Assembly (NCBI GenBank): GCA_031425655.1
Contig: JANPJS010000298.1
Coordinates: 1 to 43,959 of the forward strand
DNA length: 43,959 nucleotides
Reading direction: 5' to 3'
Source of the DNA: Abditibacteriaceae bacterium
GTDB taxonomy: Bacteria > Armatimonadota > Abditibacteriia > Abditibacteriales > Abditibacteriaceae
Shown: positions 92 to 4,834 of the stretch, in pieces
Layout: each line of letters starts with the position of its first letter
Position numbering within the stretch: the stretch's first letter is position 1
The notes under the pieces: generated by a model
Seen by the model: only the letters and a program-made list of their open reading frames with translations
What the model was told of the DNA's origin: nothing
The model's database searches: none
Translations under genes and position numbers: made by a program

Positions 92-421
92 ATGTGGTTT
101 CTCAACATTGAAGGGAATAAGGTGGCAAAAAGGGAAGCATCCAATTTGTTTGAGCCATTTCCGGTTGTCTCTAATACGACAATTCAAAAAATAGCGTTGG
201 ATATGAAAGGCCAACTCTGGATAGTTCTTGATGCAGACGCTAAACACAGTCTTGTTATTTGGAATTTGACAAAAGAATCTCCTGAAACCGTTATTCCTTG
301 GCAGACAGGTAATATAGAGATGGGCGCCGTTTCTAATATCGTCATTGCAGGCATCGCGGGCCAAACCAAAATCAGCACCTTAAGTTATGGCGTGGCACCG
401 CAAGCCGCGCCGGGAAGATAG
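92..421 (+). CDS. Hypothetical protein, possibly a fragment of a beta-propeller-like protein
   Basis: 109-aa ORF in AT-rich DNA. IQKIALDMKGQLWI resembles a propeller blade. The last ~25 codons run into GC-richer sequence next to the 21-bp array. Confidence 0.35.
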   Translation: MWFLNIEGNKVAKREASNLFEPFPVVSNTTIQKIALDMKGQLWIVLDADAKHSLVIWNLTKESPETVIPWQTGNIEMGAVSNIVIAGIAGQTKISTLSYGVAPQAAPGR

Positions 422-435
422 GACGCGCGCCGATA

Positions 436-647
436 ATTTAAGCGTTCGTGCCGAAGATTACGTCGTGCCGCCGGAAAATTAAGTCGTGTAGAGCGTCGGC
501 TAAGTCTCTTTTTAGTTCCACTCAATCGAATAGGGCGTTGCCTAAGCCGATAAAATCGAAAACTAAGACCAAAGTAGCGCCCGCAAATCCCATAAAGGTG
601 TTTGTTAAGATGAATAAGCTGTAAACTAAGCCTCTGGCGCCCCAAAT
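436..647. repeat. Degenerate 21-bp-periodic tandem array (~9-10 units), consensus about TAAGNCN-N7-YG-N4-C
   Basis: TAAG at 480, 501, 543, 564, 606 and 627, all in exact 21-nt phase. Variants at 459 (TACG), 522 (TCAA) and 585 (AAAT). CG/TG at unit positions 15-16 in six units. Confidence 0.75.
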
Positions 648-670
648 TTCATCGCAGAGGAGAAAACAAA

Positions 671-1415: not shown

Positions 1416-1450
1416 AAAAAAACGAGGCGCGAAATTCGCGCCTCGTTTTT
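1416..1450. terminator. Bidirectional intrinsic terminator
   Basis: AAAAAAACGAGGCGCGAAATTCGCGCCTCGTTTTT, a GC-rich stem with A- and T-tracts, between convergent genes. Confidence 0.85.
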
Positions 1451-1477: not shown

Positions 1478-4400
1478 TCAAGGCGTGATTGTCCAATCGC
1501 CGAGATCGTCCCAACCATCGGATAGGGCGCCCACATCGCGCACGAAGAGATACAGGTTTTGCGTGCCGACGAAATTAACCGTCGGCGTGAGTTGCCATGT
1601 AACGGCCAGAGCGTTTCCGCTTATCGTGACGGTTGTCGCGGCGCAGTTGAGGCTGGCTTTTGAGGTCGTAATGATGTGGTTGGAGCCGGGCGCGAAGCCG
1701 CCTATCCAGCCGCTGTCCGTATCGTTGCGCAGATAAAGCAGGTTGCTTCGCACGTTGTAATAGCAGCGCAGCGCACTTCCCGTGCTGGTGCTCGGCCCGA
1801 TATGGAAATACACGATATCAAGGTTGCGAGCGCCGTTCGGGTCACTGAAATTGGTGGTGATACTGCGCGCAAGGCCTTGTTTCGTGCTGCCGGAAGCGGG
1901 AGCCACGCTGACGTTCAGCGGCGCCAAATTGCCGTTAATCTGCCATGCGCCTAACATCGTGTAGCCGTCGCTTTGGCCCTTGCTGTCTTTGGCATACAGG
2001 TAAAGATTCTGAGTCGAACCCGCCAAACTGCTATTGGGCGTGATGCTCCAACGCACGATCACTTGATTTTCAAACTTTTCGGCGCTCGTTTGCGCGCAAT
2101 TGAGGCTGCCCTGACTGTTGCTGATGCTATTGCTCGAACCCGGCGCGAAGCCGCCCAGCCACGTCGTGCCGGCGTCGTCGCGCACATACAGTTTGTTGGT
2201 TGTCGCCGCATAATAGCATTGCAAAGCGTTTTTGGCATTCAAATCGTCGCCGATGTGAAACAGAACGGCGTTGATATCGGCGGCGCCGTCGGCATCGGAA
2301 GCCGTCGTGGTGAAAAGGCGCGCGGTTCCAGGATTACTCGCGCCGCTGCTTGGCGTAACGCTTTCGACCGAAGGCGCTGCGTTGCTTTGCAGAATCCAGG
2401 CTAAACGAAACGCTTGCGTTTCGCCGTTTTTGCCGTCCACCGCGATGCGGTAAGTCACGCCCGCTGTCACGGGAAATTCGATGCGGCTGGCAATTCCGCC
2501 GCCCACGTCGTCGTTTTCCGCCAGCGAAGTCAGTCCGGTCAGCGCCGCGCCGCTATAAGCCGCGATCACGGTGTCCAAAACGCTGCCGCTTGTCGTCAGA
2601 GTTAATTGTCCGCTCGCGGGCGCCGTCCAGCGGAACCAGAGCGAAGCACCCAAAGTGCCGGCGTGCGCCGGTTCGCCGTTTTGCGGTGTCGCCGCATAAT
2701 TGAACCCGGAAACCGTGCCTTCAGCGCCGGAAAGCGCACGCGCCGTGGCAAAATGGTCGTTGCCATACCACGTCAGGATTGAAGCGCCGCTCGCGGATTG
2801 GAAACCGTCTATGGCGATGTGATAAATCGTGCCCGCAGTCGCCGTAAAGCCCAGTGCGCTTTGCACCGACGCGCCATCGTCGTTGGAAACCACTTGGCTG
2901 AGGCTGCCCAGCGCCGTGCCGGTGTAAACCGCGAGAAGAGTGTCGAAATCGCTGCCCGCCGTGGTGAAAATAAAGCGTCCGTTGGACGGCGCCGTCCAGC
3001 GATACCAGATCGAGTGCGAGGCCGGATTTCCGGCGTGTTCCGGCTCGCCGTTTTCGGCTGTAGCCGTCGTGGTATTGCCCGCCGCGCTGCCGTAAGCGCC
3101 GCTGATAGCCTGCGCGTTGGCAAACGCATCGTTGGCTGGTGGCGGCGGTGCGGTGCGGAAGCTCCATGTGTAATCGTCCGCCGGTGTGCCCTGACTTGTG
3201 CCGTTCACGTTGCCGTCTAAGGTGCGATTCGTGGTGTCGGCGGCAGAGCCTAAAATCTTCGCAGTGACAAGGGTGTCCGCCGCGAAATTGGCTGACGGCG
3301 TGAAAGTCATCGTTTTGTTGCCGTCACTCCAAGCGAAGCTGCCGGCAACGCTCGGAGTGATGCGAAAAGCGCTTTGTGCGCCGGCTTTTTGCATCGCGCG
3401 CGTGAACGAAACACGCAGCGCCGGGCGCATAGGCTGGCCCGTGCCGGTCGGCGAAACTTCGGCGACGACGGGCAACGCGGTTGGGCCGGACAACGCCAGC
3501 GAACGCGCCAAATTGAGGCGCCCGCCGCTGACGACCTTGCCTTGCCATTGCGACAAGCGATCTACGCCCGCCAACAGCACTTTTTTCAAATCCGCAACGC
3601 TCATCGCATTGTAATATCCGGCCAACAGCGCCGCCGCGCCCGCAACGTGCGGCGTTGACATCGAAGTGCCGCTCAGCGTCGAATAAGTGCCGGTTCCGGG
3701 CACCGTGCTGAGAATGCCGACGCCCGGCGCGGCAAGATCAACCGAAGTCGCGCCGTAATTGGAAAAGCCCGCTTTGTCGTCGCTGGAATTGGAAGCGGCA
3801 ACTGTAATGATGCTCGGCGAAGTGTAATTGGCGGGATAATTGGGCACCGCGTCGTTGTCGGAGCCTTCGTTTGAAGCGGCCACAGCATTCAAAATGCCGG
3901 CGTTGCCCGCCGCGTCCATGGCGTCTTTGAGCGCCTGCGAATTATCGGCGCCGCCCCAACTGTTGTTGGTGACGCGAATGTTCACGCCTCTTTGCTTCAT
4001 CGCCACGACATATTGAAAGCAGGTAATAACGTCTTCCAAAGTGCCGTCGCCGCCGCTGTCCAGAAACTTCAAGGCCATGATCTTGACGTTCCAGTTGACT
4101 CCGGCCACGCCTTTGGCGTTGTTGCCGATGCCGCCGATGGTGCCGGCGCAGTGCGTGCCGTGATGGTTGTCGTCGAAGGGATTTGAGTCGCCGTTCACGG
4201 CATCTATGCCGTAAACGTCGTCCGTGTAGCCGTTGGCGTCGTCGTCCACGCCGTTTTTCTCTTTGCCGCTGCCGCTTTCGCCGGGATTGCGCCACATATT
4301 CGCGGTCAGGTCTTCGTGGTTATAGGCCACGCCGGTATCAATGACCGCCACAACCGTGGAAGCGCTGCCCGTTGTCGTATCCCAAGCCGTCGGCGCGCTG

Positions 4401-4795
4401 ATTTTCGTCATGCCGTAAAGACTGCCGTAGCTGGCATCGTTGGGCACGGTGCTGGCGCGATAAACGTAATTCGGCGAGGCCGCGATCACGCCCGGCTGCT
4501 TTTGGTAAAACGCTATGGCCTGAGCCACGCTCAAGTCTTTGGGAAGCTTAACTTTCTGCCAGCCGATGAAACCGAACGTTTTCACGGTGCGGGCGCCAAG
4601 ATTGACGTTGGTTTTATGCGCCGAAAGCGAAGCCGGCCCGGCCCCGAATTTCACCAGCAACTCGCCGGATTTGTAGCGCGAAGCCCGCACGTCGGGCCGA
4701 CTTTTGGCTTTTAGCGCCGACGAATCGCCGGGCTGCGCCACTGCCACGGGCGCGCACAACAATAGAGCGGCTAAAAGATATATGGCTAATTTCAT
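1478..4795 (-). CDS. Secreted S8 (subtilisin-like) serine protease with an Ig-like (Big_5-like) domain, two PPC-like repeats and two C-terminal ~150-aa repeats
   Basis: Signal peptide MKLAIYLLAALLLCAPVAVA. Catalytic motifs VAVIDTG, HHGTHCAG and SGTSMSTPHVAG. ND(A/H)FA..A..LSG repeats. ATG at 4795 preferred; TTG at 4807 is an alternative. Confidence 0.93.
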   Translation of the reverse strand: MKLAIYLLAALLLCAPVAVAQPGDSSALKAKSRPDVRASRYKSGELLVKFGAGPASLSAHKTNVNLGARTVKTFGFIGWQKVKLPKDLSVAQAIAFYQKQPGVIAASPNYVYRASTVPNDASYGSLYGMTKISAPTAWDTTTGSASTVVAVIDTGVAYNHEDLTANMWRNPGESGSGKEKNGVDDDANGYTDDVYGIDAVNGDSNPFDDNHHGTHCAGTIGGIGNNAKGVAGVNWNVKIMALKFLDSGGDGTLEDVITCFQYVVAMKQRGVNIRVTNNSWGGADNSQALKDAMDAAGNAGILNAVAASNEGSDNDAVPNYPANYTSPSIITVAASNSSDDKAGFSNYGATSVDLAAPGVGILSTVPGTGTYSTLSGTSMSTPHVAGAAALLAGYYNAMSVADLKKVLLAGVDRLSQWQGKVVSGGRLNLARSLALSGPTALPVVAEVSPTGTGQPMRPALRVSFTRAMQKAGAQSAFRITPSVAGSFAWSDGNKTMTFTPSANFAADTLVTAKILGSAADTTNRTLDGNVNGTSQGTPADDYTWSFRTAPPPPANDAFANAQAISGAYGSAAGNTTTATAENGEPEHAGNPASHSIWYRWTAPSNGRFIFTTAGSDFDTLLAVYTGTALGSLSQVVSNDDGASVQSALGFTATAGTIYHIAIDGFQSASGASILTWYGNDHFATARALSGAEGTVSGFNYAATPQNGEPAHAGTLGASLWFRWTAPASGQLTLTTSGSVLDTVIAAYSGAALTGLTSLAENDDVGGGIASRIEFPVTAGVTYRIAVDGKNGETQAFRLAWILQSNAAPSVESVTPSSGASNPGTARLFTTTASDADGAADINAVLFHIGDDLNAKNALQCYYAATTNKLYVRDDAGTTWLGGFAPGSSNSISNSQGSLNCAQTSAEKFENQVIVRWSITPNSSLAGSTQNLYLYAKDSKGQSDGYTMLGAWQINGNLAPLNVSVAPASGSTKQGLARSITTNFSDPNGARNLDIVYFHIGPSTSTGSALRCYYNVRSNLLYLRNDTDSGWIGGFAPGSNHIITTSKASLNCAATTVTISGNALAVTWQLTPTVNFVGTQNLYLFVRDVGALSDGWDDLGDWTITP

Positions 4796-4834
4796 CAATT
4801 TTCTCAAAGATTTGCGCCGAAGCCGTTGAATGAC

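Follow-up and report, generated by a model that had tools for sequence, protein, structure and literature searches.

Bacterial tandem repeats that keep a constant size of 20–21 nt while varying in sequence have been described by Subirana and Messeguer (2021; PMC8161180); the accessible part of that paper notes that the size equals two helical turns and proposes a protein, unnamed there, that polymerizes on DNA. Direct repeats near a two-turn spacing are also known from the plasmids P1, F, R6K, RK2, and pPS10, whose iterons are 17–22-bp sites for winged-helix Rep proteins in origins that carry DnaA boxes; the text of PMC4980987, as far as it is accessible, describes this binding as cooperative and phase-dependent, with Rep cooperativity lost when sites are shifted by half a turn. 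In the centromere systems parC/ParR, tubC/TubR, and parS/omega, upstream repeats are coated by a cognate protein that represses the promoter, and, in the accessible account, ribbon-helix-helix or winged-helix readers act together with a motor NTPase (PMC5016525). BrickBuilt, a MITE of Porphyromonas gingivalis, carries 19 copies of a 23-nt sequence with a leader, a tail, and inverted ends (PMC4596501).

The array analyzed here lies in a window of 43,959 nt (the whole stretch of DNA under analysis; contig JANPJS010000298.1 of the Abditibacteriaceae bacterium assembly GCA_031425655.1), where degenerate 21-bp units directly precede a gene for a helical protein of the PQLLE family (Table 1). It resembles the repeats of PMC8161180 in length, in being non-coding, and in a sequence that varies between families and species, and by description, rather than by the output of the original detection program, the arrays of the window and of its homologues are constant-size repeats of 20–21 nt. 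The accessible text of PMC8161180 draws no link to a gene, whereas the arrays described here hold a fixed place before one gene family and are more degenerate. The pairing thus names a candidate protein for repeats that are left unexplained in that text.

With the iterons the arrays share direct repetition near two turns and, presumably, cooperative, phase-dependent binding. No winged-helix Rep was matched beside them by Pfam or NCBIfam, and the predicted protein model contains no strands; a DnaA box occurs within 800 nt at 2/71 loci, and a tblastn search of 72,556 plasmids for an iteron-like plasmid location returned no match. The feature common to the partition systems, a repeat array upstream of a gene, is present at the PQLLE loci, where coating by the protein would be the corresponding step. 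However, a motor NTPase (ParA, ParM, or TubZ) was not found among 120 neighboring frames (one frame per side, flanks mostly 1.5 kb), the predicted secondary structure of the protein does not seem to fit a ribbon-helix-helix or winged-helix reader, and, unlike the centromere systems, these cassettes have a long helical bundle as candidate reader and no conserved partner gene, and many of them, with unrelated motifs, can share one genome. The comparison suggests that the cassette works like iteron/Rep or parC/ParR without belonging to either class. BrickBuilt, too, is a tandem repeat of about this size that is scattered through intergenic regions of its genome, but the window array has no full second genome copy and is tied to a gene. 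The parts are individually named, and the pairing of array and PQLLE gene was not found in print by a search of openly accessible article text.

Table 1. Features of the array and its surroundings (window positions)
Feature	Positions	Strand	Basis or remark
Left cassette arm, putative promoter or leader	373..437	+	53/69 bases common to the deleted sister copy on C158
Heptad-bearing open frame, probably arising from the period rather than a gene	385..645	-	Synonymous, Pfam, and NCBIfam tests
Ten degenerate 21-bp units	438..647	.	Core 459-647; non-coding array of putative phased sites
GAGGAG, Shine-Dalgarno-like	657..662	+	Sequence; 9 nt past the last unit
PQLLE-family protein, 236 aa	671..1381	+	NF052641 above cut-off; AlphaFold2 model; profile relatives
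Perfect 16-bp inverted repeat, terminator-like or REP-like	1418..1450	.	Between 671-1381 and the convergent 1109-aa ORF; outside the shared cassette

The original prediction had placed a 21-bp-periodic array at 436–647, and its units and coordinates stand. Identity at lag 21 over this segment is 0.455 (z = 6.2), a value reached in 0/1000 dinucleotide shuffles, and lag 42 is also elevated (z = 5.3), so that the period is significant against shuffled sequence; lags 7, 14, 28, and 35 are at chance level, and a 7-bp period was not found. The same segment is the highest-scoring 210-nt stretch for a 21-bp period within the window. The array may begin at 417 with an eleventh unit, the units at 438 and 417 both holding YG in phase. 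Among the nine units from 459, the predicted consensus elements, TAAG, YG at positions 15–16, and a terminal C, each occur in six; the remaining positions had been taken as unique, which overlooked a C at position 6 in 8/9 units. The units without TAAG (459, 522, and 585) are every third one, but a 63-bp super-period was rejected, as unit identity is flat over distance. Neighboring units have 9.25 of 21 bases in common (44% identity). The last unit ends at 647, with the ribosome-binding site close to the predicted distance of about 10 nt (Table 1) and the ATG at 671. In the left arm no consensus promoter was found, a sigma-70 scan of 1–1600 giving no match, and ECF-like or sigma-54-like matches were likewise not found there.

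The protein matches the NCBIfam model NF052641, “PQLLE family protein”, over residues 38–223 with 104 bits (cut-off 80), as do 24/24 aligned relatives. The protein, first described as uncharacterized and without a named family, thus has a family name; the entry, as seen in the tool output, gives the name without function or mention of DNA. At E ≤ 0.001, 597 relatives were found among 50%-identity representatives. The AlphaFold2 model (117 sequences, pLDDT 95.5) is all helical, with no strands and with long helices at 62–117 and 167–225. It folds as two homologous halves, each comprising a short helix pair and one helix of 56–59 residues, and hhalign of the two halves (98.2%, E = 4e-14) bears out the internal duplication noted originally. 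R82, R111, and R201 are almost invariant, and conserved basic residues recur at i+4/i+7 spacing (R104/R111/R115 and 216/220/224); the net charge of the family has a median of +2, with pI > 8 in 60/117 proteins. Neither Pfam nor PADLOC matched the protein, a sequence-profile search returned no solved relative, and Foldseek gave no match to the model at E ≤ 0.001; the fold-search hits were all generic helical bundles (best Z 10.0), none of them a known DNA-binding protein. At the sensitivity used, searches of plasmids (tblastn, 72,556 sequences), phages, and viral contigs yielded no relatives. DUF6261 (PF19775) was considered as a family assignment and rejected, since Pfam did not match it in the protein, in its 117 relatives, or in the genome; an Atlas feature similarity of 0.87 counts as a lead only.

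The predicted two-part arrangement is conserved across homologues. From 106 loci, 71 with near-full genes were kept (the other 35 being partial, weak, or duplicate), two of them lacking an upstream flank. The 160 nt before the start codon are periodic in 43/66 loci, as are 5/55 regions further upstream and 2/69 downstream. In a scan of up to 1.1 kb, arrays were called upstream in 46/59 loci and downstream in 1/64, with no upstream call in 13/59. The autocorrelation that had been proposed as a check, at periods 7 and 21, gives peaks at 21, 42, and 63 only in 66 pooled upstream regions, and the 3-nt rhythm present in the genes is absent from them. In 50 segmented arrays, 476/502 confidently anchored intervals are 21 bp, a count that leaves out 83 weak intervals and uses a segmentation that penalizes other lengths. 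Adjacent units of the homologue arrays are 56% identical (median), 4–8 bases per unit are conserved, and dyad symmetry is confined to 3/44 arrays. Units of other lengths lie mostly within homopolymer runs; two loci, L017 and L019, hold several 20-bp units each. An origin of the 20-bp units in A-tract twist was rejected, since A-tracts are abundant in 13/17 of them and in 7/7 of the 22-bp units too, versus 156/476 at 21 bp.

The motif differs between lineages and the period remains constant. Motif similarity follows protein identity as long as the latter exceeds about 50% and does not rise above background among more distant proteins, as linkage alone would predict, and proteins 60–70% identical can have unlike motifs. 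The last anchor lies <40 nt from the start codon in 25/49 loci; at L066 and L076, with 25 and about 28 units, the arrays are set back from it by 260–550 nt. At L009, L022, L029, and L005 the repeats continue into the N-terminal coding region of the gene. Arrays of 21-bp units also occur in 8/11 loci of a family that is remotely homologous to PQLLE (hhalign 94.6%) and longer at the C terminus; Pfam gave no label for this C-terminal extension, which may be FN3-like. The array thus travels with the gene for the helical protein across several bacterial groups: the PQLLE profile is found in 9/401 genomes of the window's phylum, in 12/301 genomes of the class of a Verrucomicrobiae genome, and in 9/301 of the class of a Thermoflexales genome, and in all three sets single genomes often have several matches; Atlas taxa suggest a range in Bacteroidota as well.

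One option originally raised was a fast-evolving heptad peptide, encoded by the array (here by the minus-strand ORF of Table 1) and paired with the helical protein. The ORF is open with the heptads as they were listed, only 6.5% of column shuffles keeping it open (P about 0.065), and Leu occupies 8/10 heptads from three different codons. The number 21 is a multiple of 3, some frames are coiled-coil-like, and the entry of repeats into the protein N terminus at a few loci would also suit a coding array. Antisense frames are open in 31/44 arrays versus 25–26 expected (p = 0.01–0.02), an excess that becomes 15/22 versus 12.6 among independent representatives (p about 0.11). Conservation, however, is not at codon level. 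For the ORF itself the synonymous observed/expected ratio is 1.03, differences are spread as 0.33/0.32/0.36 over the codon positions, Pfam and NCBIfam gave no match, and a sister remnant of the array carries a 1-bp indel and an in-frame stop relative to it. In orthologue pairs the genes have a synonymous excess (21:8, 51:19, and 71:25), whereas their arrays, whichever of the six frames is read, have no such excess (best 7:13, 10:34, and 16:28). Column conservation has a codon harmonic of 0.057 in arrays versus 0.151 in coding controls, and the within-array synonymous ratio is 1.06 in open frames, a test whose controls are weak (≥1.5 in only 5/12 coding stretches, with single array frames also at 1.5–2.4). 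Even with the end units trimmed, 10/44 arrays have no open frame among the six, the four closest orthologues have no open frame in common, and the several 20-bp units of L017 and L019 also speak against a coding array. The array is almost certainly not peptide-coding as judged from these tests, which largely refute the peptide reading and leave it highly improbable. The anchors were also considered as conserved stop codons, an idea rejected at 4/22 versus 3.3 expected, which is not above the null.

The closest orthologous arrays differ by whole units (−105, +21, −126, and −84), and orthologue pairs are 82% versus 95% and 57% versus 88% identical in array and gene, respectively; arrays therefore diverge faster than their genes. 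Such divergence is what neutral minisatellite turnover at cassette junctions would give, with the array a functionless by-product, and both the near-perfect, young repeats of some arrays and the non-21 units, whose concentration in homopolymers is what slippage or sequencing error would produce, are in keeping with it. Against it, unit sequences that are unrelated share one length and one position, upstream only, and neutral minisatellites give no reason for 21. We regard neutral turnover as very unlikely.

A structured or variable-spacer RNA array, the second option of the original prediction, found no support: there is no common fold (mean z −0.44 on both strands, 7/44 arrays below −2 on each), the window array has a fold z of +0.54, and Rfam gave no match. 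Type III toxin–antitoxin, CRISPR, and TIGR arrays consist of near-identical structured repeats or repeat–spacer units and have a known effector. Like them, the present array lies directly upstream of a protein gene, but membership in any of these was rejected on the 44% unit identity, the fold score, and the absence of Rfam or PADLOC matches. Many arrays are nonetheless probably transcribed as part of an mRNA leader, and the RNA itself could act, as a 150–350-nt repeat leader bound by the protein in translational autoregulation or ribonucleoprotein assembly. Extended −10 sites of the TGCTATAAC type lie 30–64 nt before six arrays, an ECF-like site occurs in 11/20 loci of one family versus 0.9 expected, mostly at the 5′ edge of the array (the pattern was drawn by eye from the same loci, which makes the test circular), and the sense strand is purine-rich in 16/22 representative arrays. 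Together with the arrays that end near the start codon, these promoter-like sites fit an RNA role as well as a DNA role. The lack of a shared fold speaks against the RNA leader, as does a near-perfect sigma-70 site that separates array from gene in L094, and strict 21-nt spacing would be more expected of a rigid duplex than of single-stranded RNA. The anchor GGTCA, which five related arrays carry on the sense strand, is on the opposite strand in L046, a single case in which whole-array identity barely supports the flip (0.44–0.48 versus 0.40–0.42); occurrence on either strand is compatible with a duplex site. Overall, an RNA function appears unlikely.

Promoter-like sites occur on either side of the arrays, so that the position of the array relative to the promoter is not fixed. 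A general sigma-70 scan found sites upstream in 7/45 and downstream in 1/24 loci at p ≤ 0.05, with no consistent placement. Sigma-54 enhancer arrays accompany a −24/−12 promoter motif, which was found in 0/71 loci within 600 nt upstream (exact pattern). Strict unit length combined with a variable position relative to the promoter would favor duplex DNA, and the upstream linkage (46/59 versus 1/64) counts in favor of sites coated by the cognate protein, as do the arrays of the remotely homologous family and the regularly spaced basic residues. Two conservation patches within the unit are often about 10.5 nt apart (harmonic 0.22 versus a null of 0.10); this harmonic exceeds the 21-nt harmonic in 10/22 representatives only, is absent from the window array, and is not decisive, because a coiled coil, with its 3.5-residue rhythm, would give the same spacing.

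Comparison of close pairs bears on the limits of the unit that is inherited. In several pairs the flanks are different, and homology is confined to a segment that opens at the array or as much as about 100 nt ahead of it and closes at the stop codon; in other pairs synteny is kept on one side of the cassette. A sister copy in the genome of the window (G000:C158:6850-6680, minus strand) lies in another neighborhood and is internally deleted: it retains the counterpart of window 373–441 (53/69), the first 2.5 units (38/48), and, joined to these, the gene's final 16 codons; the deletion took array and gene together. In these alignments the upstream segment, array, and gene behave as one cassette, moved and lost together. 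A profile scan of G000 for the window array found no clear second array, only this 2.5-unit remnant. The neighboring genes of cassettes vary; restriction-modification, small-nuclease, or toxin–antitoxin families account for 13/55 upstream and 2/65 downstream frames, and a position behind restriction and toxin–antitoxin genes hints at an accessory role in defense islands.

One genome can hold several cassettes with unrelated motifs, and in G000 five or more further arrays precede uncharacterized genes, three of them in the remotely homologous family. This weighs on the proposal that the units are DNA sites for a host factor, a nucleoid protein or transcription factor, with the gene merely its target. 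The arrays are non-coding, phased, and beside promoter-like sites, G000 also holds orphan 21-bp arrays that adjoin no helical gene, and the accessible text of PMC8161180 reports its repeats from many bacteria with no gene named, all of which a host factor would accommodate. So would the lack of covariation between protein and motif (Mantel test of N-terminal residues across 22 independent representatives, r = 0.08, p = 0.13; residues 201–236 gave an uncorrected p of 0.03 in one of 7 such tests). One factor would not read all of the unrelated motifs of a genome, however; the pairing is kept in three distant groups, and four orphan arrays match units of two gene-linked arrays of the same genome. 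A host factor as the reader is distinctly unlikely in our view.

Phased binding sites are the best of the three options originally offered, as far as sequence comparison can decide, and the array is most likely a landing strip for the PQLLE protein. The period, the linkage to the gene, evolution as non-coding DNA, a strict unit length with a rapidly changing motif, and the cassette limits are observed; from them we infer binding, the identity of the reader, and repression. In a model to which we give about an even chance, a small mobile cassette would comprise an upstream segment, 6–25 degenerate 21-bp units, and a PQLLE-family gene, the units being double-stranded DNA sites spaced by two turns of B-DNA. 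The elongated helical protein of the cassette would bind cooperatively along a single helical face and so coat the units, and the coat, extending over the promoter or the early transcribed region, would repress the gene. Each protein lineage would recognize its own short word, making the cassettes of one genome independent. Duplex coating has against it a fold without a known DNA-binding match, a protein that is only mildly basic, and the lack of N-terminal covariation with the motif. If the protein does read the array, it would have a DNA-recognition fold unmatched in structure searches, and the cassettes would form a natural set of independent repressor–operator pairs. The dozens of natural protein–array pairs with different motifs make the earlier guess of a polymerizing protein testable.

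A wider reading is possible but doubtful. The PQLLE proteins and their beta-domain-fused homologues, as a widespread superfamily, would be a new, all-long-helix class of sequence-specific nucleic-acid-coating proteins, each with its own rapidly re-programmed two-turn array, that form independent nucleoprotein filaments with a job beyond autoregulation. Such a job could be, for example, sensing DNA attack in defense islands, or anchoring the nucleoid, in which case the protein would also occupy orphan arrays in trans. If true, this filament class would supply the missing reader of the constant-length 21-nt repeats of bacteria.

Other arrays of G000 were noted in passing. Those at C301:2231-3626, C219:7526-8871, and C63:12485-13741 precede longer homologues with the C-terminal extension, and each has one part in inverted orientation; those at C306:40826-41405 and C164:14500-15389 precede two further uncharacterized proteins, the latter with a weak PQLLE score. 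The orphan 21-bp arrays C184:7828-8149, C45:1-151, C222:51519-51652, and C28:23776-23943 have units that match the C301 or C219 arrays, and several adjoin a palindromic element starting with GTAG. Among the homologue loci, one palindromic element lies on both sides of the L085 cassette and upstream of that at L096, a possible route of movement. Further 21-bp arrays, next to which no helical gene was found, lie at C303:16507, C54:22280, C312:57376, C228:15357, C37:28303, C227:16103, and C16:165. Short, near-identical 21-bp repeats at C135:4920-5040 could be true iterons; they precede a 316-aa protein that is presumably a replicative-helicase ATPase. Intergenic 7-bp tandem arrays are numerous in this genome (for example C141:4029-4471, C26:2327-2665, and C234:3395-3786), some of them in inverted pairs.

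Around the cassette in the window, a 109-aa ORF at 92–421 (plus strand), in AT-rich DNA and with no family match, may have been truncated by the cassette, because its last codons lie inside the left arm. The inverted repeat beyond the gene was not called by a terminator scan and has a 27-bp copy on C73, and a 26-bp segment past the stop codon, within 1380–1450, recurs after a gene on C227. The convergent 1109-aa ORF (1478–4807, minus strand) presumably encodes a secreted subtilisin-type protease with added domains, judging from its motifs.
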